Source: a virus
Virus genome (UHGV): UHGV-0385761
Reading direction: 5' to 3' (one strand)
DNA length: 34,790 nt
Positions 854 through 34,790 of this stretch are shown here, piece by piece. A model generated the notes under the pieces. The model did no database searches. It was not told the origin of the DNA and saw only the letters and a program-made list of their open reading frames with translations. Positions within the stretch are counted from its first letter, which is position 1. Each line of letters starts with the position of its first letter. The translations under genes were made by a program, and so were the position numbers.

Positions 854-891
854 AATAATATTATTTTCCATCAAAATGTATTTTTAATAAA

Positions 892-919
892 TTCAATTCA
901 AACCCCTCTGTGCTATAAT
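892..919 (+). promoter_or_regulatory. Sigma70-like promoter with extended -10 (TGcTATAAT) for the downstream moron ORF
   Basis: TTCAAT (892-897), 16-bp spacer, TGCTATAAT (911-919). Confidence 0.45.
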
Positions 920-950
920 ATATGTAGTCAATACAAGAGGGGGAGCAAGT

Positions 951-1130
951 ATGGAATATCAAATATACGAATCTTACGATACATTTTTGCTTTACCAAGA
1001 GTTTTTGGAGATACCAGGTAATACATTCAAGTTCCGGCTGCCAGAAGGGATGATCCTGACAACCGAAATGATGCACACCTTTTTACGGGCGGCATATATG
1101 AGTGTTGGACGGATGGATCTGCCGTCCTGA
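951..1130 (+). CDS. Hypothetical 59-aa protein (moron between the lysin and attP/int)
   Basis: Strong RBS AGAGGGGGAG 5 nt before the ATG and its own promoter. Product MEYQIYESYDTFLLYQEFLEIPGNTFKF... has no recognisable family. The track misses it (under 60 aa) and shows a minus-strand antisense ORF here instead. Confidence 0.45.
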   Translation: MEYQIYESYDTFLLYQEFLEIPGNTFKFRLPEGMILTTEMMHTFLRAAYMSVGRMDLPS

Positions 1131-1145
1131 ATATTGTATCATTTA

Positions 1146-1195
1146 TTTTGTACTAATTATACTGCTCCAAATGGGGCTAAACACTTAGTACAAAA
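1146..1195. promoter_or_regulatory. Candidate attP core: perfect 11-bp inverted repeat TTTTGTACTAA / TTAGTACAAAA flanking a 28-bp spacer
   Basis: The 50-bp element sits 5 bp from the serine-recombinase stop codon. Its size and symmetry are typical of large-serine-integrase attP sites. Confidence 0.5.
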
Positions 1196-1199
1196 CAGA

Positions 1200-2600
1200 T
1201 TATAAAAAATCTACAGCTTTAATCGTATTGTCATCATTTAGGTAAATCTCCTGTATTGTGGATCGCCAAAAAGAACGCCTGTTTTCCGGAGACAGCGAAT
1301 CATACATCTGGCGAAAGTCAGTTTTTAATAGTTCTTCTACATAATGCAGGTTTCTCGTCTCTTCTTCCTCGCAAAAAGCAGCAGAAGCGGAATATTCTCT
1401 CTCCAATCTTTGGTACTCCTTATCGTAGTAATCGTAAGAAATCCGCCCTTTTTGAAATAATATATTTAATCGTTCCATTTCTTTTCTAAGCTTTTTCGGA
1501 TCTTTCGCTTTCTTTTGCTTTTTTAACTCTTCGCTGATCTGGTTGGTGCGAACCTTATACTTTTCGTACTCTCTTTCAAGATTTTCGAGCAGATATTTTT
1601 CGATAAGGTTCTGGCTCACCCTATGCCTATACGTGCAAATATGGTCTTTAAGCGCTCTATTGCAACGGTAGTAGCAGTACGTCCTTTTTTCCCACGTTTT
1701 ACGATTTATAACGGACGAGCATCCTGTACCGACTAATTTCTGTCCGCATACAGGGCAACGTATTAAACCAGTAAATAGGTATACTCTGCCAGATGGTGTG
1801 CTTTTTATATTTCTTTTCGAGATAGTTTGCATCTCATCCCATTCTTTTTCTGACAGGTATGCTGGACAATAAGGGTATCCTCTGTACGTCCCCTTGTAAA
1901 ATTCGCTCGATAACATTGTTCTCAACATTCCATAGCTAAAATCAATACCATAGGCCTCTTGCATGTACCGGACAGCACCTTTTTTGGAGTTATGGATTCT
2001 AAAATAATTAAAAAAATCTTCCACCATGTGTTCTGTTTCCGGATCCTTAACCATGCATTTCTTTCCATCCACAACGCCTGTTTTATATCCAAAAGGCATA
2101 TTTGCATCTCCGAATATTAACTTCCTCTGTCTTATAGATGCTTCATTCACAAATTTAATTCGCTCGGATGTGGTGTCTACTTCGTTTTGACCGATCGACA
2201 GCACTACATTTAACTGCAATCGTCCATCTCTTGTCTCCATGTTTATACCGGGCTCTGATACGGAAATCCAGCGAACACCATGATCATCAAGCACATCTTG
2301 CACCTTATAAAAATCAGAAAGATTTCGAAACCATCTGTCGAGTCTCCAGAAAATTATCACATCAATTTTATCCCTTTTTACGTCCTCTACAAGAGCGTGT
2401 ATGGCTTTTCTTTTCTTCAATTCTTTTCTGGCAGTCTTTCCCTCGTCCGCATAGACGCCTACTATAGACATATTGTTGTCTGTTGCGTATTGCTCCAGGC
2501 ATTCTTTCTGTGCTTGCAGAGACTTGCCATGTACGCTCTGCTCAAATGTGGAGACGCGGATGTATATGGCACACCGCAGTATTTTTTCTGGCATTTGCAT
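1200..2600 (-). CDS. Large serine recombinase (phage integrase)
   Basis: N-terminal resolvase domain with the YIRVSTFEQ catalytic serine motif, a recombinase domain, a CxxC...C zinc ribbon and a coiled-coil tail. The start is taken at MQMPEK (ATG 2600) after the RBS AAGGAGAG; the track's upstream extension lacks an RBS. Confidence 0.9.
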   Translation of the reverse strand: MQMPEKILRCAIYIRVSTFEQSVHGKSLQAQKECLEQYATDNNMSIVGVYADEGKTARKELKKRKAIHALVEDVKRDKIDVIIFWRLDRWFRNLSDFYKVQDVLDDHGVRWISVSEPGINMETRDGRLQLNVVLSIGQNEVDTTSERIKFVNEASIRQRKLIFGDANMPFGYKTGVVDGKKCMVKDPETEHMVEDFFNYFRIHNSKKGAVRYMQEAYGIDFSYGMLRTMLSSEFYKGTYRGYPYCPAYLSEKEWDEMQTISKRNIKSTPSGRVYLFTGLIRCPVCGQKLVGTGCSSVINRKTWEKRTYCYYRCNRALKDHICTYRHRVSQNLIEKYLLENLEREYEKYKVRTNQISEELKKQKKAKDPKKLRKEMERLNILFQKGRISYDYYDKEYQRLEREYSASAAFCEEEETRNLHYVEELLKTDFRQMYDSLSPENRRSFWRSTIQEIYLNDDNTIKAVDFL

Positions 2601-2769
2601 CACTCTCCTTTTGTAAAATATATTTAAAATTGGTACAAAAATAACAGCCAGCGCAAAACATATGTTCCGCTTGTGTGACTGCCCCGAAGATGATACAATA
2701 TTCGTGGATTTCAATCGCATATCTTCGGATATGTATACCGTCTCTGTTGGCGCAGGGGCGGTTTTTAAT

Positions 2770-3147
2770 TTACTGATTGATGATCATTCCTGCCCCGTCT
2801 CTGAAAGTTCCCGTAGCAATTTTAATAATGTCGTAGATATATCCGATGCCAAAACACCCGCCAGTGAGTAACCAAATAATACCAGTCCCAATTTTTCCTA
2901 CGTAAAATCTATGTATTCCTAGGACTCCTAGTAGGATTGCAAGGATAAGTGTTACGACCTTACTCTTTGGGCTAGTGCCTGATGCAAACCCTGAATTTAC
3001 CACATTTGCCTGAGCAGTGTTGTTAATCACAACGCTTGATGCTCCCGAAGTTTCGATCTTTTCAACTTGTTTCCCGCATTTTGGGCAAACAACGCAGTCT
3101 GCACTGATCTGCTCACCGCAATGCTTACAAAATTTTGTTTCGCTCAT
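2770..3147 (-). CDS. Zinc-ribbon plus TM2-domain membrane protein (lysogeny-module cargo; possible superinfection exclusion)
   Basis: [15 protein letters not shown] zinc ribbon at the N-terminus. The C-terminal TM2 domain motif is [39 protein letters not shown] precedes ATG 3147. Confidence 0.8.
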
Positions 3148-3276
3148 TTCATTTTCTCCTTTTCCTCTGTACTTTTCCCACAATTTATATATAAACGCCT
3201 AAGCGGTTATACCATATTAAATTAAAATCTTCCATCAATCCTTATAAAATATAAGAACAAATGTTCGAATAAAATG

Positions 3277-3305
3277 TTGATTTTTGTCCCCTGAGATAGT
3301 ATTAT
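3277..3305 (+). promoter_or_regulatory. Near-consensus promoter TTGATT-17-TATTAT flanked by TGTTCGAA / TTCGAACA inverted repeats (3262-3269, 3318-3325)
   Basis: Read directly from the sequence. The -35 hexamer overlaps an ATGTTGA motif that resembles the switch operator half-site TGTTGA. Confidence 0.45.
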
Positions 3306-3354
3306 ATGTTCAGGGATTTCGAACAAGTGTTTTTGTAGTTAGGAGGGACTCACG

Positions 3355-3465
3355 ATGGACGAATTAAATATCTTGTTATCCAAGCTCAACGGTAATGATT
3401 ATAAAATCATCCGGCAGCTTGTTTCGATATTACATAGGTATCTGGAGCGAAGAGGGAGACTTTAG
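3355..3465 (+). CDS. Hypothetical 36-aa peptide (MDELNILLSKLNGNDYKIIRQLVSILHRYLERRGRL)
   Basis: RBS AGGAGGG 7 nt upstream and a consensus promoter upstream. It is convergent with the repressor gene. Confidence 0.4.
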   Translation: MDELNILLSKLNGNDYKIIRQLVSILHRYLERRGRL

Positions 3466-3482
3466 TCTTCCCCTTTTTTATT
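3454..3482 (+). terminator. Putative terminator at the convergence of the 36-aa ORF and the repressor gene
   Basis: GGGAGAC-ttta-GTCTTCCC imperfect stem followed by CTTTTTTATT. Confidence 0.35.
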
Positions 3483-3854
3483 CAATCCAGATCCTACGCT
3501 TTTAAAATACTCTCTTATAACAAGTTTTGACTTCTCATCCATTTCCTGATATTTCTTCATCATTTCTATAATAATATCGTAAAAAGGATTTCCGACGCCG
3601 TCGTATTCAAGCAAGTCTTCTACGTAGTGGCCTACTTCATCAGATGGCTGTTTAAACATTTCTCCATTTCCGGATCTTAACCACTCTTCGTTCACGCTGT
3701 ATTTATTGCATAAATCAGAAATAACTCTATCACTCGGAATTGCTTTTCCTATTTCATATGTAGCAATCGTATTTCTTTTTAATCCAAGTTTATCAGCAAG
3801 TTCTTGCTGCGTTATTCCTATTGTCTTGCGCAGCTCTTTTATGCGCTCATTCAT
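3462..3854 (-). CDS. XRE-family HTH transcriptional repressor (cI-like phage repressor)
   Basis: N-terminal HTH_XRE (IKELRKTIGITQQELADKLGLKRNTIATYE). RBS AGGAGGTG precedes ATG 3854 (MNERIK...). The C-terminal domain is not peptidase S24. Confidence 0.85.
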   Translation of the reverse strand: MNERIKELRKTIGITQQELADKLGLKRNTIATYEIGKAIPSDRVISDLCNKYSVNEEWLRSGNGEMFKQPSDEVGHYVEDLLEYDGVGNPFYDIIIEMMKKYQEMDEKSKLVIREYFKSVGSGLNKKGED

Positions 3855-3878
3855 TGGCACACCTCCTATTCAATGTAG

Positions 3879-3908
3879 ATTATAAACTACAGAGAGATAA
3901 ATGTCAAT
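3879..3908 (-). promoter_or_regulatory. Consensus promoter for the repressor gene (TTGACA-18-TATAAT on the minus strand)
   Basis: Plus-strand TGTCAA at 3903-3908 and ATTATA at 3879-3884. Confidence 0.55.
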
Positions 3909-3915
3909 TAAAAAA

Positions 3916-3932
3916 TGTTGAAAAAATCAACA
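3916..3932. promoter_or_regulatory. Operator palindrome TGTTGA-aaaaa-TCAACA between divergent promoters; further TTGA/TCAA half-sites up to 3954
   Basis: Perfect 6+5+6 palindrome. ATCAAC (3926-3931) and GTTGAT (3949-3954) form a second, overlapping inverted repeat. Confidence 0.5.
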
Positions 3933-3940
3933 AAAAGGTA

Positions 3941-3969
3941 TTGACAAAGTTGATTAACCGACGTACAAT
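3941..3969 (+). promoter_or_regulatory. Consensus early rightward promoter TTGACA-17-TACAAT
   Basis: TTGACA 3941-3946 and TACAAT 3964-3969. It drives a leader of about 140 nt to the ORF at 4118. Confidence 0.55.
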
Positions 3970-4117
3970 AGTCGTACAACAACAAAACAACAACACAAAC
4001 CAAAACAGAAAACGCTGACCTATAAGCCGGATACGTTCCGGCACTGTAATGCAGCCGAAGCCGGTTCCAAGCCCGGAAGATGCAGAGGACAGAATATAAG
4101 AAAGGAGGAGTGAAGAG

Positions 4118-4474
4118 ATGCATGAAATTTTTTGCACACGCAAAACATTTTTAAGTGGAGAATCCATCGCAGCAATATCTTTTGAGCTTCCCGAAAAAGA
4201 GTGGGAAGAATTGAAAGAAACGCAAGGATGGCAATTCGTAGAAAGATTTTTAAATCGAAAGAGAAAAGGGGTTGTAAATAATTTCGAACTTTTAAAAGCG
4301 ATTAGTGCTGAACGAGAATTCAGTGAGATGATCATTGCGTTGGCGGAAGAATTTAAAACGCCTGAAAAGCTGGAAGAGGCTTTAAAAAAGGAAATTTCAG
4401 AGGAAGAGCTGCGACATACATTAGAAGCAGCTCAAGAAAGTGATTATCCTCTATTCTTTTCAGGCATGCAGTAA
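4118..4474 (+). CDS. Hypothetical protein in the cro position (no obvious HTH)
   Basis: RBS AAGGAGGAG. The product is an acidic 118-aa protein. It is the first gene of the rightward operon. Confidence 0.6.
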   Translation: MHEIFCTRKTFLSGESIAAISFELPEKEWEELKETQGWQFVERFLNRKRKGVVNNFELLKAISAEREFSEMIIALAEEFKTPEKLEEALKKEISEEELRHTLEAAQESDYPLFFSGMQ

Positions 4475-4671
4475 GCACAGCCGTTTCTGTTTACAGCAAG
4501 CATGGAAGCAAAAATCACAGCTTCTGTATAAGTGTCGCAGTTAAAAACATGTTCTGGTTTTATTTCATCGATTTGACATTGCGGTGTTTCGCGGTCTAGA
4601 TCGTGAATTTCTCCAGTGTTTTTGTTTAAAACAAATTGCTTTCCGTTAAAAGGTGAATTACAACGTCTCAT
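4444..4671 (-). CDS. Cys-rich hypothetical protein (75 aa), convergent within the early operon
   Basis: RBS AAAGGAG precedes ATG 4671 (MRRCNSPFNGKQFVLNKNTGEIHDLD...GCAYCMPE). It overlaps the 3' end of the 4118 ORF by 31 nt. Confidence 0.5.
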   Translation of the reverse strand: MRRCNSPFNGKQFVLNKNTGEIHDLDRETPQCQIDEIKPEHVFNCDTYTEAVIFASMLAVNRNGCAYCMPEKNRG

Positions 4672-4797
4672 AAAATCGCTCCTTTCGTAATACTCAGGCA
4701 TGGCAGTGCCCTGTATTTACAGTATAGGAGATAAACGAAAAGGAAGCAATCCCGCCACGGAGGTTACGACGGCAATAAAAATAGGAGGTAAAAGGTA

Positions 4798-5571
4798 TTG
4801 AATGAATTATTTACAATCAACACAGACGGTAACGAACCAACCGTATCTGCCAGAGATCTTCATAAGGCTCTTGGGATCAGAAAAAGATTTTCCGAATGGT
4901 TCGAAAAGAATTCGCAAGGATTTATTGAGAATGAGGATTTCTCCAACCCGTACCTGAAAGTACGAGTTCAGATCGAGGGTGGAAGAGAAGTACAGAGAGA
5001 GGTTGAAGATTTTGATTTGTCAGTAGACATGGCAAAGCACATCTGCCTAATGAGCAGAACTGACAAAGGGAGAGAATGCAGACAAAGATTAATTGACCTC
5101 GAAAAAGCATGGAACACACCAGAACAGGTAATGGCAAGAGCCTTAAAGATGGCAGGAAAGACCATTGACAGCCTAAAAGACAGGTGCAAATTCCTCGGAG
5201 GGCAGGTTGTGGAACAGCAGAAATTGATCGAGGAAATGACACCAAAAGCGAACTATGTTGACCATATTCTGGAATCAAAATCGTTGGTAGCGACTACGCA
5301 GATCGCCAAAGACTATGGAATGTCAGCGGTGCGATTTAACCGGATTCTGAACGATATGAAAATCCAGTACAAGGTTAATAAACAGTGGGTGCTCTACTCA
5401 AAATATCAGAATTGCGGCTATGTGCATAGTAAAACAATCGATATTACAAGGAGCAACGGAGATCCGGATGTAACAATGCAGACGCAGTGGACACAGAAAG
5501 GGCGCTTGTTTTTATACGAGGAGCTTAAGAAAAACGGCATCTATCCAGTAATTGAGCTGAACGCAGCATAA
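4798..5571 (+). CDS. Phage antirepressor (AntA/ORF6N N-terminal domain plus KilA-C C-terminal domain)
   Basis: N-terminal TVSARDLHKALGIRKRFSEWFEKN and C-terminal LVATTQIAKDYGMSAVRFNRILNDMKIQYK. TTG start after AGGAGGT. Confidence 0.85.
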   Translation: MNELFTINTDGNEPTVSARDLHKALGIRKRFSEWFEKNSQGFIENEDFSNPYLKVRVQIEGGREVQREVEDFDLSVDMAKHICLMSRTDKGRECRQRLIDLEKAWNTPEQVMARALKMAGKTIDSLKDRCKFLGGQVVEQQKLIEEMTPKANYVDHILESKSLVATTQIAKDYGMSAVRFNRILNDMKIQYKVNKQWVLYSKYQNCGYVHSKTIDITRSNGDPDVTMQTQWTQKGRLFLYEELKKNGIYPVIELNAA

Positions 5572-5581
5572 GGAGGTACGC

Positions 5582-5740
5582 ATGAGCGATAAAGATAAAA
5601 AAGAAATTGCAGAAATGGTAAGAAAGGCAAAGCATCTGGCAGAAAACGATCCGCAGGGCTTCATGCTCGCCAAGAATAGTATAGATATTTTAAAGGCGAG
5701 ATCTGACATGGATGCAGTAGATGAAAAAGAGAATAACTAG
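5582..5740 (+). CDS. Hypothetical 52-aa protein
   Basis: RBS AGGAGGT 4 nt before the ATG. Not in the track (under 60 aa). Confidence 0.45.
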   Translation: MSDKDKKEIAEMVRKAKHLAENDPQGFMLAKNSIDILKARSDMDAVDEKENN

Positions 5741-5792
5741 GACAACATATCTCGGACAATCCATCCAGCATACATAGTAGAGAGGTGATTTT

Positions 5793-5906
5793 ATGAAGCC
5801 AGATATGGAAAAAATCATACAAGTGTTGATGTCTCTTATCGAAGAACAGGAACATGTGAAAATTGATTACACACTCGAAAAGAGGACAGAAGAGGAAACC
5901 GCCTAG
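5793..5906 (+). CDS. Hypothetical 37-aa protein
   Basis: RBS GAGAGGTGA precedes the ATG. The stop lies inside the palindrome CCGCCTAGGCGG. Confidence 0.35.
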   Translation: MKPDMEKIIQVLMSLIEEQEHVKIDYTLEKRTEEETA

Positions 5907-5927
5907 GCGGTAGAAGGGAGGACAAGC

Positions 5928-6116
5928 ATGGAGATTAAAGGAACCTACCACTGCCAGACCACTCAGCAACCAAACACATTAAACAGCTGGGACATCCGCT
6001 CCGTATCGGTAGATCTGCCGGAAGAAGAGGACAAGCCTTATTGGATCAGAGCTGGAGTGGCAGTGATCGGGTTTATCTTGGTGCTACTGGCGTGGTATCT
6101 GGTGTTTGGGTATTAA
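5928..6116 (+). CDS. Small membrane protein (62 aa, C-terminal TM helix)
   Basis: RBS GAAGGGAGGA. Hydrophobic C-terminus GVAVIGFILVLLAWYLVFGY. Confidence 0.5.
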   Translation: MEIKGTYHCQTTQQPNTLNSWDIRSVSVDLPEEEDKPYWIRAGVAVIGFILVLLAWYLVFGY

Positions 6117-6201
6117 AAAGAGTGCTGTCACAGGGCGGCAACCCTCGAGCACTCAAGAAATTAAAACAGTTAAATTGTAGACGAAAAGGAGAAGTTTGTA
6201 A

Positions 6202-7632
6202 ATGAAAATTACGAAAATTAAGATCAAAAATCTTTATGGAATTACAGAATATGAAGGAGACGGAAAGAGTGTAGAGCTTTCCGGAACAAATGGAGCAGGC
6301 AAATCTTCCGTGATTGATGCGATTCGGTACGCACTTACAAATAAGTCAAATCGCAAGTATGTTGTGAGAAACGGAGAAACAGAGGGGGAAATTCTGATTG
6401 AAACAGATAACGGATTGAGAATCAATCGGAAGGCAAGAACGAATCAAGCGGATTACAAGAGCGTGAAGCAGAACGGTCATGAGGTGGGGAGTCCGGAAAC
6501 ATTTTTGAAAGATATTTTTACTCCACTGCAGCTGTCACCGGTTGAATTTATGGAGAAATCCGAAAAAGAGCAGAATGCAATTTTGCTTGATATGATCCAG
6601 TATGACTGGTCATTGCAGACAATTCGTGAATGGTTTGGTGAAATTCCAGATTGGGTATCTTACGATCAGAATATTTTACAAGTTTTGAATGATATACAGT
6701 CGGAAAACGGCATGTATTACAGGAATCGGCAGGATGTGAATAGAGATATTCGGAATAAAAAATCATTTGTTGAGGATATCGCAGATGCTATCCCGTCTGG
6801 ATACGATGCAGAAAAATGGGAAAATGAAAATCTTGGACAGCTGTATCAGGAAATCGAGCGCATCAGAAAAGAAAATGAACAGATTGAGAAAGCAAAGAGA
6901 TTTATTGAGCAGAGGGACAACAAAGTCCGATCATTTGAAGCGGATAAAGAGATTAAATTATCCGCATTGGAAAGGTCGTTTACTGCAGAGCGCGAACGCC
7001 TTTTGAAAGAAAATGAAAGGCTGCAGGCTCAGTTGAGAGAAAATCAAACAATGCTTGCTGGTATGGAAGAGAGAAAAGCGGACAAAGCAGAAGTGATCGT
7101 AAAAGAATATGAAGCGAATGTTGCGAAATATGACAGCTCTGTAGAAGAGTATAAAGAATTGTCAGAAAAAGAAGTACAGGATTATTCGGAATTGCAGAAT
7201 CAGGCATCTTATGCGGAAGAGATGAAATCCCACTTGAATGAATATCGTCGAATGGTTGATCTACAGAACGAAGTGGAGCGATTAAAAGCAGAATCCGAAG
7301 ATTTTACGCAGAAAATCGAAAAGGCACGGTCTCTTCCGGGAGAAATCTTAGAAACTGCAACTATTCCGATTTCCGGTCTTACAGTTGTAAACGGTGTTCC
7401 GCTGATTCACGGACTCCCAATCAGCAATCTATCAGACGGAGAAAAACTTGATCTGTGTATCGATGTGGCGATTCAGAAGCCGAATGGACTGCAGATCATC
7501 CTGATTGATGGAGTAGAGAAAATGTCTACAAAAATGCGGACAGAGCTGTATCAGAAGTGCAAAGATAAGGGATTACAGTTTATCGCAACAAGAACAACAG
7601 ATGAAGAAGATCTGACAGTGATTGAATTATAA
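6202..7632 (+). CDS. AAA/SMC-like ATPase (RecF/RecN/SbcC-type; Walker A GTNGAGKSS, LSDGEK signature, Walker B IILID)
   Basis: Motifs read directly. A long central coiled-coil. RBS AAAGGAGAAG. Confidence 0.85.
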   Translation: MKITKIKIKNLYGITEYEGDGKSVELSGTNGAGKSSVIDAIRYALTNKSNRKYVVRNGETEGEILIETDNGLRINRKARTNQADYKSVKQNGHEVGSPETFLKDIFTPLQLSPVEFMEKSEKEQNAILLDMIQYDWSLQTIREWFGEIPDWVSYDQNILQVLNDIQSENGMYYRNRQDVNRDIRNKKSFVEDIADAIPSGYDAEKWENENLGQLYQEIERIRKENEQIEKAKRFIEQRDNKVRSFEADKEIKLSALERSFTAERERLLKENERLQAQLRENQTMLAGMEERKADKAEVIVKEYEANVAKYDSSVEEYKELSEKEVQDYSELQNQASYAEEMKSHLNEYRRMVDLQNEVERLKAESEDFTQKIEKARSLPGEILETATIPISGLTVVNGVPLIHGLPISNLSDGEKLDLCIDVAIQKPNGLQIILIDGVEKMSTKMRTELYQKCKDKGLQFIATRTTDEEDLTVIEL

Positions 7633-16731: not shown

Positions 16732-16794
16732 TATGCTATAATTATTCTAGAACGATTGTATATTGTTCTAAAACAATCTTTCCAAACATTCGGA

Positions 16795-17155: not shown

Positions 17156-17288
17156 GGACTACTGCAAGTTACTCCTTTTTTTATAAAATGATCACTCAAG
17201 ATTCCGAGAGATCATATAGATTTTGATTGTGTACTTGGTTATTTTGGTTTTGTTGCTGTTATAATTCTTTCATTTTGCAGTAGTCCTA
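17156..17288. repeat. 11-bp inverted repeat GGACTACTGCA (17156-17166) / TGCAGTAGTCC (17278-17288) bracketing the AT-rich region between the tRNA and terS
   Basis: Read directly. It is a candidate packaging (pac/cos) or regulatory element. Confidence 0.4.
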
Positions 17289-26625: not shown

Positions 26626-28956
26626 ATGGGTTACGATGGCTCATTAAAATTTAATACAGAAATAAACGAATCTGGATTTAATTCAGGAATTTCCAAACTT
26701 GGCAGTGTTGCAAGTGGTGGATTGAAAGTTATTGCCGGATCAGTAGCTGGCGTTGCTGCAGCATTTGGGGCAGTGTCTAAAATGTCTCTTGATTCTGTTG
26801 CAAGCTTGGAGCAGAACATAGGCGGTGTTGAGACGCTGTTTAAAGATAGCGCGCAGACAGTGATTGATAACGCGAACAATGCGTATAAGACAGCTGGTGT
26901 ATCCGCAAATAAGTACATGGAGACTGTGACAAGCTTTTCTGCATCACTTTTACAGGGGCTTGGGAATAACACCGCAGAAGCTGCTAAAATAGCGGATATG
27001 GCAATGGTAGACATGTCTGACAATGCGAATAAATTCGGTTCCAACATGACGGATATCCAAAATGCTTATCAGGGATTCGCGAAGCAGAACTACACAATGT
27101 TGGATAACCTGAAGCTTGGATATGGTGGAACGCAGGCTGAAATGATACGCCTGATTAATGATAGCGGCATTTTGAACGAGAAAATAGAAAATCTCGACAA
27201 TGTGTCATTTGATCAGATTATTCAGGCAATCCACAAGATTCAGGAAAATATGGGTATTGCCGGAACGACAAGCGCAGAAGCATTGACTACCATAGAGGGT
27301 TCTGTGCAATCCGCAAAAGCCGCGTTTGACAACTTTTTAAATGGTTCAAGTTCCCCACAGGAGTTGGCAGACGCTGTAAAGGCTGCGGCTGAAAATATAA
27401 CAAATAATTTAATGCAGATTGTTCCAAGACTTGCAAAAGAACTCCCAGAGGTTGGAAACCTGTTGATGGACAGTCTTTCGCAGTCACTTAACTCTGGAAA
27501 ACTCGGAGAAATGATGCAGATCGGTGGACAAGTCATTTCCAACATAACAACTGGAATTATACAAGCATTGCCCGGAATTGTAACTGCATCAGCGCAGATT
27601 ATAAGCTCATTTGCACAAAATATCAGCACCAGCATACCTCAGCTATTATCATCCGGAATTCAGATCATACAGGCAATAATAAATGGGATGATGCAGGTAT
27701 TACCGTCTGTTGGCTTGCTTATAACTCAACTTATTACAACTCTATACGAGCAGATAACATCTCAGGGGCCAAGTTTGTTGCAGCAAGGCTATGAATTGTT
27801 AAGCAATCTGATTGATGGATTCGTAAAGGCAATTCCAGAAGCGTTGCCGAAAGTGCTTGATTTCATACAGGGCATTGGAGAAAAGCTCGCAGAAGCTGCA
27901 CCAGTGATGATTCAAAAAGGATTTGAGTTGTTGCAGAAATTGGTAGAAGGAATTGTGAGTGCAATACCGATATTGATTGAGCGAGTTCCGGAAATTATTT
28001 CGACATTCGCAAACATAATCAATGATAATTTCCCTACAATCCTGATGAAGGGTGCTGAATTACTTGGTCAGTTGGCGCTCGGACTTATTCAGGCAATACC
28101 GACTCTGATTGCAAATATTCCACAGATTATATCAGCTATCGTTGATACATTAATGGCGTTCCAGTGGTTGAATCTTGGTAAAACCATTATAACCGCATTA
28201 GGAAACGGAATTAAATCTATGGTTGGTTTCGTCACAGAATGCGGAAAAAGCATATTGAACGGAATCAAATCATCTGTTCAAAATTTGCCAACTTTATTGC
28301 GCGATATCGGTCGAACTGCAATGACTGGGTTTTCTAATGTGATACAAACTTCAATCGTTGCAGTAAAAAATGCCGCTTCGAATATTGTAAGTACTATCGT
28401 AAGTACAATCTCTTCCATTCCCGGACAGATGGCTTCTATCGGCAGCAATATTGTTCAGGGGCTGTGGAATGGAATATCCAACATGACGGGATGGATCATT
28501 GATAAAATAGGTGGATTCGCTGATAGTGTAGTTACAGCTATTTGTGATTTTTTTGGTATAAAATCACCGTCCAGAGTTATGCGAGATCAGGTTGGTAAGT
28601 ATCTTGCAATGGGAGTTGGCGTTGGATATGAAGAGTACATGCCGTATGAAGAAATGAAAAAAGTATCCGGTAAGGTGGTGTCGCAGTTGTCCGCATCTGT
28701 GAGTGGTGTAACGTTATCAGTGCCGGAAAGCGCTGGAAGTCAAACGTACCAGAAAAGCGTTGGAATTCAAAAAGCCAACAACAACGATGATCTAATCTAC
28801 GCAGTAGATCGATTATCCAGACTCGCAAACCGGCCGCTTGAAATTATCAATAAAATTGATTCTGTTGAGACGTCCAGAGTACTTGCGGCACCAATGGAAA
28901 AACAAATAGAAAAGAATTCGAGTTTTCGGAAGATGTTAGGAGGAGACAGAGATTGA
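26626..28956 (+). CDS. Tail tape measure protein
   Basis: 776 aa. TMP core (AGVSANKYMETVTSFSASLLQG...) with Gly/Ala/Ile-rich hydrophobic repeats. Confidence 0.9.
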   Translation: MGYDGSLKFNTEINESGFNSGISKLGSVASGGLKVIAGSVAGVAAAFGAVSKMSLDSVASLEQNIGGVETLFKDSAQTVIDNANNAYKTAGVSANKYMETVTSFSASLLQGLGNNTAEAAKIADMAMVDMSDNANKFGSNMTDIQNAYQGFAKQNYTMLDNLKLGYGGTQAEMIRLINDSGILNEKIENLDNVSFDQIIQAIHKIQENMGIAGTTSAEALTTIEGSVQSAKAAFDNFLNGSSSPQELADAVKAAAENITNNLMQIVPRLAKELPEVGNLLMDSLSQSLNSGKLGEMMQIGGQVISNITTGIIQALPGIVTASAQIISSFAQNISTSIPQLLSSGIQIIQAIINGMMQVLPSVGLLITQLITTLYEQITSQGPSLLQQGYELLSNLIDGFVKAIPEALPKVLDFIQGIGEKLAEAAPVMIQKGFELLQKLVEGIVSAIPILIERVPEIISTFANIINDNFPTILMKGAELLGQLALGLIQAIPTLIANIPQIISAIVDTLMAFQWLNLGKTIITALGNGIKSMVGFVTECGKSILNGIKSSVQNLPTLLRDIGRTAMTGFSNVIQTSIVAVKNAASNIVSTIVSTISSIPGQMASIGSNIVQGLWNGISNMTGWIIDKIGGFADSVVTAICDFFGIKSPSRVMRDQVGKYLAMGVGVGYEEYMPYEEMKKVSGKVVSQLSASVSGVTLSVPESAGSQTYQKSVGIQKANNNDDLIYAVDRLSRLANRPLEIINKIDSVETSRVLAAPMEKQIEKNSSFRKMLGGDRD

Positions 28957-34634: not shown

Positions 34635-34790
34635 ATGAGTATTTGTCGTGGAGTAGCAGGAAACAGAGGAAGAAATCCAGTGGGAATCTTTATCCATAAT
34701 GACGCTGGTAGTCAGAATGCGAACGCAGCGTTTTACAGAAATTGGATACAGACACATCCCTTGGAAAATGGATTTGCGCACTATTATGTA
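34635..34790 (+). CDS. Endolysin Amidase_2 N-terminus (partial; continues in frame at window position 1)
   Basis: [39 protein letters not shown]...NGFAHYYV. 156 nt is exactly 52 codons, so the frame runs into nt 1. Confidence 0.8.

Follow-up and report, generated by a model that had tools for sequence, protein, structure and literature searches.

The moron concept is said to come from the work of Juhala, Hendrix and co-workers on HK97, HK022 and lambda, with lambda bor, lambda lom and HK97 gp15 among the examples. Small genes in the slot between the lysin and the phage attachment site are commonplace. Here we report on one of them, an open reading frame of 59 codons (ORF59) in the UHGV virus genome UHGV-0385761, a stretch of 34,790 bp that we call the window. 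The window is the whole genome, circularly permuted, of a temperate siphophage of Mediterraneibacter (Ruminococcus) gnavus, in which the amidase endolysin is split by the window ends (N-terminal part at 34636-34790, remainder at 1-819, with the stop codon at 817-819). Like the morons of HK97, HK022 and lambda, ORF59 is an extra unit that parts sequences found adjacent in close relatives. It has a promoter-like element and a ribosome binding site (RBS) of its own, it is dispensable in that roughly a third of the relatives lack it, it occupies the slot between lysin and attachment site, and it is independent of the neighbouring modules. Many characterised morons encode membrane or surface proteins, unlike ORF59, whose product is soluble, acidic and just 59 amino acids long. 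We conclude that ORF59 is almost certainly a real protein-coding gene under strong purifying selection, and that window positions 854-1135 very probably make up an autonomous single-gene moron cassette. The two statements taken together, with the function of the protein offered as a conjecture, we regard as likely. ORF59 is thus an ordinary phage moron, uncharacterised and of a familiar kind, and its protein family is undescribed.

The nearest isolated phage is the Ruminococcus phage RG-TP1, which is 94% identical to the window across 817-2775 and has the same gene order: endolysin (gp40), a 59-residue hypothetical protein (gp41) and a serine integrase (gp42). RG-TP1 gp41 (XPO97306.1) is the ORF59 orthologue, at the same position between endolysin and serine integrase; it is 95% identical and annotated only as a hypothetical protein. 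Among 50,697 isolated phage records, RG-TP1 is the only one in which we find the gene.

To decide which strand codes, we use 65 DNA copies of the locus (63 IMG/VR contigs, one metagenome-assembled genome and RG-TP1), which reduce to 55 distinct sequences. Every one of the 55 has exactly 59 codons plus the stop, with no insertions or deletions. In the ORF59 frame, the ratio of nonsynonymous to synonymous polymorphism (pN/pS) is 0.093, and the variable sites fall mostly on third codon positions (21 first, 8 second, 34 third). Four of the five other frames have pN/pS values from about 1.0 to 3.5; the fifth, with 0.26, is on the minus strand and shares its third positions with ORF59. An alternative would be that the real gene is the antisense reading frame of 71 residues that overlaps ORF59, or that the region is non-coding and both frames are there by chance. 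The antisense frame is the longer of the two and it is the one that appears in the mechanical six-frame list. However, its pN/pS is 1.0, it is interrupted by stop codons in 38 of the 55 variants, and about half of the relatives have entirely different DNA in place of the stretch that encodes its C-terminal third. We find no homologue or family match for it, whereas the plus-strand protein has homologues down to 33% identity. Because the plus frame alone shows purifying selection, and stop codons break the minus frame in so many variants, the plus-strand frame is the gene and the minus-strand frame an artefact. On the substitution pattern, the alternative is already refuted, and we give it practically no chance. 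An earlier note on this DNA had placed a gene with the same translation at ORF59 and had set the antisense frame aside; both choices are borne out, and among the homologues too the conserved frame is the plus one.

The ORF59 product has an isoelectric point (pI) of 4.6 and a net charge of -4.4, and neither a transmembrane segment nor a signal peptide is predicted for it. The structure prediction that the earlier note had proposed, run with AlphaFold2 (AF2) on a diverse alignment, gives a confident model, a two-helix hairpin, with a predicted local distance difference test (pLDDT) of 86 and a predicted template modelling score (pTM) of 0.69. In this model, a helix at residues 9-20 and another at 38-52 are joined by an extended conserved loop with an IPGN turn, and a small beta bridge connects 5-6 with 35-36. 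In a set of 5.8 billion proteins we find 38 clusters of close homologues; searching 1.84 billion representatives exhaustively with a profile returns 28 matches, and a second profile search 82 clusters. The members of the family have 59-68 residues and 33-100% identity, all are acidic (pI 4.0-5.6), and they share the pattern Y-E-S-x-E-x-x-L-L-Y-x-E-F-x-x-I-P-x-N ... P-E-G-x-x-x-T-x-E-M-M-x-x-F-L-x-x-A-Y. Scans of Pfam, PHROGs, NCBIfam and PADLOC with the window protein and 16 diverse members give only noise, and nothing similar turns up in PDB sequence profiles, PDB folds or BFVD, in agreement with the earlier note, whose author could liken the protein to nothing nameable. We also considered domain fusions as a hint to function, and we reject them: the longer database entries are proteins with over-extended starts.

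The evidence for a discrete cassette comes from filled and empty sites. The cassette lies between two copies of an 8-bp direct repeat. In the window, the left copy is degenerate (AATAATATT) and the right one is TGAATATT; in the relative L030 both copies are exact, and the filled site reads GGGG-TGAATATT-ATTTTCC ... CCGTCC-TGAATATT-GTATCA, with about 274 bp between the repeats. The isolated phages phiRg507T2_3 and phiRg519T2 have the empty site, GGGG-TGAATATTGTATCA, in which TGAATATTGTATCA, a sequence that begins with the stop codon of ORF59, comes immediately after the lysin hairpin. An exact-match scan of IMG/VR for the empty junction finds it in 34 contigs, versus the 63 contigs that carry the gene. 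The empty sites lead into the same attachment-site and integrase classes as the filled ones, including the class of the window: the serine-integrase types A, B, D and F and the tyrosine-integrase type E are seen both filled and empty, the tyrosine type C only filled, and the tyrosine type of the phiRg phages only empty. Because the two states share these classes, the presence of ORF59 assorts freely. The slot may also hold other inserts. In L012, at the equivalent of window positions 854-950, a minus-strand cassette of about 1.3 kb (L012 3690-4990) sits between the lysin hairpin and ORF59; it encodes proteins of 141 and 113 residues without a family, and an 80-residue protein of the HTH_3 family. 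Since this insert is divergent from ORF59, the slot between lysin and attachment site holds several independent accessory units.

On its other side, the cassette meets an exchangeable block. Past the ORF59 stop codon, the relatives share just TGA(GA)ATATTGTATCA and then split into discrete classes. The attP of the large serine integrase begins 17 nt from ORF59. In circular genomes of the window class the full site is kept, TTTTGTACTAATTATACTGCTCCAAAT/GGGGCTAAACACTTAGTACAAAA; in at least 14 integrated copies, the left half is identical up to 1172 and is followed by CCTGTGACGAG, which is the 5' part of a host gene for a lipoprotein whose substrate-binding domain is NMT1/THI5-like (for example L014 5181-5461). 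Because the integrated copies turn to host DNA exactly after 1172, we place attP at 1147-1195. For the same reason, ORF59 is the terminal gene of the prophage and reads outward across the junction. The position of ORF59 between lysin and attP, which the earlier note had assumed, is thereby fixed by prophage junctions. As read from one junction, a phage of the window type splits the host NMT1/THI5-like lipoprotein gene in its lysogens. The attP-integrase block (1142-2594) is an exchangeable module between the constant segments 1131-1141 and 2595-2775, and in related phages this slot holds at least four serine and at least three tyrosine integrase types. Copies of ORF59 that are at least 85% identical adjoin four different large serine recombinases (that of the window and others of 510, 472 and 491 residues) and also two different tyrosine integrases.

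Distant homologues of ORF59, 33-66% identical in the contexts that we list in Table 1, are found in quite different surroundings. Three of them are at prophage ends, behind the lysin (L071, L082, L084). In L072-L079, the homologues are counter-oriented single genes inside lytic operons. The family tends to sit in accessory islands with defence genes (RnlA/RnlB, Thoeris, a DUF4062 cassette). The only thing that stays constant across the distant contexts is a single self-contained unit at accessory positions. The earlier note had called ORF59 a moron, and the name fits: a discrete cassette, an exact empty-site allele, an 8-bp direct repeat, free assortment with integrase type and lone distant homologues all speak for it.

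The expression signals bear on the proposed autonomy of the cassette. A near-ideal RBS, AGAGGGGGAG, and a putative extended -10 element, TGCTATAAT, are found where the earlier note had read them, with a 5-nt spacer and with TGcTATAAT about 30 bp upstream, and the transcription start is predicted near 926. The comparison of relatives carries more weight than the window alone. In all 65 homologous loci, the motif TGNTATAAT occurs 22-32 nt before the ATG, and all 65 have GGAG or GAGG within 20 nt of it. The upstream contexts are of three kinds: in 32 loci the lysin hairpin immediately precedes the cassette, which is also the arrangement of the window; in 23 the insert of about 1.3 kb comes before it, with an unrelated leader; and 10 have other inserts and a leader of the window type. 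Several distant homologues have -10-like elements upstream as well, and in L071 there is, in addition, a hairpin and T-run shortly before the gene. The comparative data are good support for a putative sigma-A-type extended -10 promoter that belongs to ORF59. The proposal of a promoter and an RBS proper to the gene thus gains from the fact that both motifs are kept in every locus despite unrelated upstream sequences. Three other exact matches to TGNTATAAT occur in the window, at 16734-16742 and 17257-17265 (plus) and at 28126-28134 (minus).

Around the RBS, the region 900-960 folds at -16.9 kcal/mol (z -2.8), and a leader that starts at about 926 is unstructured (-0.7). The fold includes an inverted repeat, CCCCTCT/AGAGGGG, that is restricted to relatives with the cassette directly behind the lysin terminator. 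Pairing of the RBS with CCCCTCT would be possible only in RNA begun upstream, such as lysin read-through, and as a hint only, the predicted fold could favour the cassette's own transcript.

The hairpin after the endolysin stop codon is kept in all relatives, even in those with different lysins, and it is probably a bidirectional terminator. The minus strand has a much better T-run (GGGGATTTTTATT) than the plus strand, and the hairpin should for that reason be the stronger terminator for minus-strand transcripts. The earlier note had read 826-853 as the lysin terminator; the hairpin is indeed there, and the part of the claim that is weakened is termination on the plus strand. In relatives with minus-strand cassettes, the hairpin probably terminates these at least as well as the late operon.

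Several observations weigh against an autonomous cassette with a role in conflict, and we collect them here. In the window, TGNTATAAT occurs 4 times versus 1.66 expected, and 8 of 100 shuffled sequences reach 4, so that a lone promoter match proves nothing. A generic scanner for -35 and -10 elements does not call the ORF59 promoter, since there is no recognisable, usable -35. ORF59 has the same direction as the late operon, the hairpin before it has a poor plus-strand U-tract, and late read-through is possible. Between the ORF59 stop codon and attP we find no intrinsic terminator; the inverted repeat of attP can fold as RNA (dG -18.9) and has no U-tract. The GC fraction of ORF59 is 0.428 versus 0.425 for the genome, without compositional anomaly. 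Two textbook moron traits, a downstream terminator and a deviating composition, are therefore missing, unlike in the morons of HK97, HK022 and lambda. Searches by sequence and fold find no likeness to any characterised inhibitor, and the guess at function draws on size, charge and neighbourhood. The papers on R. gnavus phages that we consulted do not discuss ORF59 and give no transcript or phenotype data for it.

As a small gene whose neighbours are a large serine recombinase and attP, ORF59 resembles TP901-1 Orf7 and SPbeta SprB, which we take to be small recombination directionality factors (RDFs) of serine-integrase phages, and one could propose that ORF59 is the RDF of the adjacent integrase. 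The 17 nt to attP favour this, and so does the observation that the first isolated relatives without ORF59, phiRg507T2_3 and phiRg519T2, carry a tyrosine integrase. Unlike Orf7 and SprB, however, ORF59 does not co-vary with the integrase. The same protein, at 85% identity or more, goes with four unrelated serine recombinases with different attachment sites and with two tyrosine integrases; the integrase types A, B, D, E and F, that of the window included, occur also without it; and distant homologues lie far from any integrase. A promoter without evident repressor control would harm an RDF, and in the immunity region we find no match of 10 nt or more to the ORF59 promoter region and no shared operator-like sequence. 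No likeness to Xis or RDF families appears in Pfam, PHROG, NCBIfam or PDB, and the protein is acidic rather than basic. Since filled and empty states share serine- and tyrosine-integrase modules, we reject the RDF as highly improbable. A different case can be made from orientation. In the window phage, ORF59 points the same way as holin and lysin, the hairpin may leak for want of an adjacent plus-strand U-tract, and the lone promoter match is not significant; ORF59 could then simply close the late or lysis operon, share a transcript with the lysin and serve lysis or virion release, and the TGnTATAAT would be fortuitous. Yet about one third of the related phages have the same lysin and no ORF59. 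In 33 of the 65 loci, an insert of about 1.3 kb or similar separates ORF59 from the lysin (with minus-strand genes in L012), and the -10 element and RBS are retained there. Distant homologues are away from lysis genes and face the other way from all their neighbours, read-through RNA would have its RBS paired according to the predicted fold, and the protein has no membrane segment. We hold a lysis gene to be quite improbable.

Small acidic helical proteins are often anti-repressors, and ORF59 might in the same way be a small regulator of the lysis-lysogeny decision, such as an anti-repressor or a modulator of the CI-like repressor or of a late activator. Two distant loci would fit: the L075 homologue is divergent from a late-activator-like Sigma70_r4 gene, and the L068 homologue from an HTH_3 gene. 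On the other side, empty and filled alleles occur on similar backbones, and whether ORF59 is there does not depend on the remaining genome; the protein shows high conservation next to regulatory modules that vary; an anti-repressor with a constitutive promoter would destabilise lysogeny; and no partner gene is conserved beside the ORF59 homologues. A regulator thus seems improbable to us. For the autonomous moron with an accessory role, we propose the following. The host sigma-A RNA polymerase would transcribe ORF59 independently of the late operon, and it would for that reason probably do so in the lysogen too. The acidic, cytoplasmic two-helix product would bind another protein and not DNA, DNA binding being unlikely for a uniformly acidic, compact and helical protein. 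Its likeliest partner would come either from the host, as a defence or regulatory protein, or from a competing phage. ORF59 would then be an accessory factor of the anti-defence or exclusion type, of use to the phage or the lysogen and dispensable for the basic life cycle. The patchy distribution and the neighbourhood of the family loosely suggest such a role in conflict. That ORF59 acts in phage-host or phage-phage conflict by protein binding is a tentative proposal, one we consider possible without expecting it to be right. The more specific form is doubtful: that ORF59 founds an undescribed family of acidic two-helix proteins of about 60 residues in temperate phages of gut Lachnospiraceae, made constitutively from the prophage end and inhibiting either a bacterial defence (for example CRISPR-Cas, Thoeris, or toxin-antitoxin and abortive infection systems) or a rival phage. 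If it were true, an incoming phage and the lysogen's own prophage would both be protected. More speculative still, since ORF59 reads outward over attP with no terminator, antisense transcription into the integrase gene would arise only in the excised circle, which would couple the promoter to the integration state.

The comparison that invites this proposal is with the AcrIIA-type anti-CRISPRs of Listeria and Streptococcus phages, presumably small acidic anti-defence proteins. Like them, the ORF59 family is small (59-68 residues), acidic, stand-alone and patchy, and it is found near RnlAB, Thoeris and DUF4062 genes; these traits are permissive and not diagnostic. Unlike the AcrIIA-type systems, it has no sequence or fold match to solved structures, and the likeness is circumstantial only. 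The ORF59 cassette has no linked helix-turn-helix (HTH) gene of the "Aca" kind, its neighbours in the window being lysin and integrase, and in the relatives the HTH genes near ORF59 are on the other strand or in other operons.

M. gnavus is a gut commensal associated with inflammatory bowel disease, and its temperate phages are considered for microbiome engineering. Few accessory genes at the prophage end assort freely, and the ORF59 cassette, which about two thirds of the sampled related contigs carry, is among them. Natural phages with and without ORF59, on the same backbone and with the same integrase type, make a ready-made functional comparison, and the gene is short enough for synthesis and screening against defence systems. 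If ORF59 did inhibit host immunity or competing phages, the anti-defence or exclusion repertoire of Clostridia phages would gain a new family; if not, ORF59 is a well-documented, ordinary small moron.

Table 1. Features around ORF59 in the window, and loci of distant ORF59 homologues
Sequence	Feature	Coordinates	Strand	Remarks
Window	Hairpin after endolysin stop codon	826..854		left edge of cassette slot; 10-bp GC-rich stem, dG -17.8, z -4.4
Window	Left direct-repeat copy, degenerate AATAATATT	854..862	+	exact TGAATATT in relative L030
Window	Antisense open reading frame, 71 residues, spurious	861..1076	-	GTG start; in mechanical six-frame list
Window	Inverted repeat CCCCTCT / AGAGGGG	903-909 / 936-942	+	could occlude RBS
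Window	Extended -10 promoter element TGCTATAAT, putative	911-919	+	31 nt 5' of ATG; no good -35
Window	RBS AGAGGGGGAG	936-945	+	5-nt spacer to ATG
Window	ORF59 coding sequence, 59 residues	951..1130	+	from substitution pattern and homologues
Window	Right direct-repeat copy TGAATATT	1128..1135	+	first three bases are the ORF59 stop codon
Window	Constant linker ATATTGTATCA	1131..1141	+	last sequence common to all relatives before attP-integrase modules
Window	attP of large serine integrase	1147..1195		11-bp inverted arms, 27-bp centre; crossover at or just left of 1172
Window	attP arms TTTTGTACTAA / TTAGTACAAAA	1147-1157 / 1185-1195		centred on 1171
Window	Large serine recombinase	1200..2594	-	Resolvase, Recombinase and Zn_ribbon_recom domains; convergent with ORF59
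Window	Zinc-ribbon and TM2 domain protein, 137 residues	2770-3183	-	between integrase and CI-like repressor
Window	CI-like repressor	3462-3860	-	
L068	Homologue divergent from HTH_3, 302-residue and DUF4062 cassette	3511-6192		
L071	Amidase_3 lysin, RnlA/RnlB, homologue, host genes	4798-6204		prophage end
L072-L076	Lone homologue, opposite to every neighbour			between early (DUF551) and late (terminase or Sigma70_r4) genes
L078, L079	Lone counter-oriented homologue			near other early genes
L082	GH25 lysin, homologue, convergent tyrosine integrase			prophage end
L083	Homologue adjoining Thoeris ThsA/ThsB	1984-5201		
L084	GH25 lysin, UmuC/SRAP, DUF6932 nucleotidyltransferase, homologue			prophage end

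The integrase gene of the window probably starts with MPEKIL at 2594 and not at 2720, the start of the mechanical frame of 506 residues. The L012 orthologue starts at a methionine equivalent to 2594, behind an AGGAGA RBS, and conservation across phages resumes at 2595, exactly at the start codon; the 126 nt upstream of this start are a conserved segment between modules. Further on, 5' of the integrase gene, the zinc-ribbon and TM2 protein is a candidate membrane protein expressed in lysogeny, and at the position of its gene the relatives encode different lipoproteins.

Among the junctions past ORF59, we considered TTTGGTGG/ACCGGACGGGG as a junction with host DNA and we reject it, as it is a hybrid spacer into an attP similar to that of type B. 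This spacer (L051 5181-5400; L057 2202-2440) has the left part of the attP of the 472-residue integrase, then about 100 nt of unrelated sequence, and after these come the crossover point of the 510-residue integrase and its left half-site in diverged form. It looks like a fossil of the replacement of one integrase module by another.

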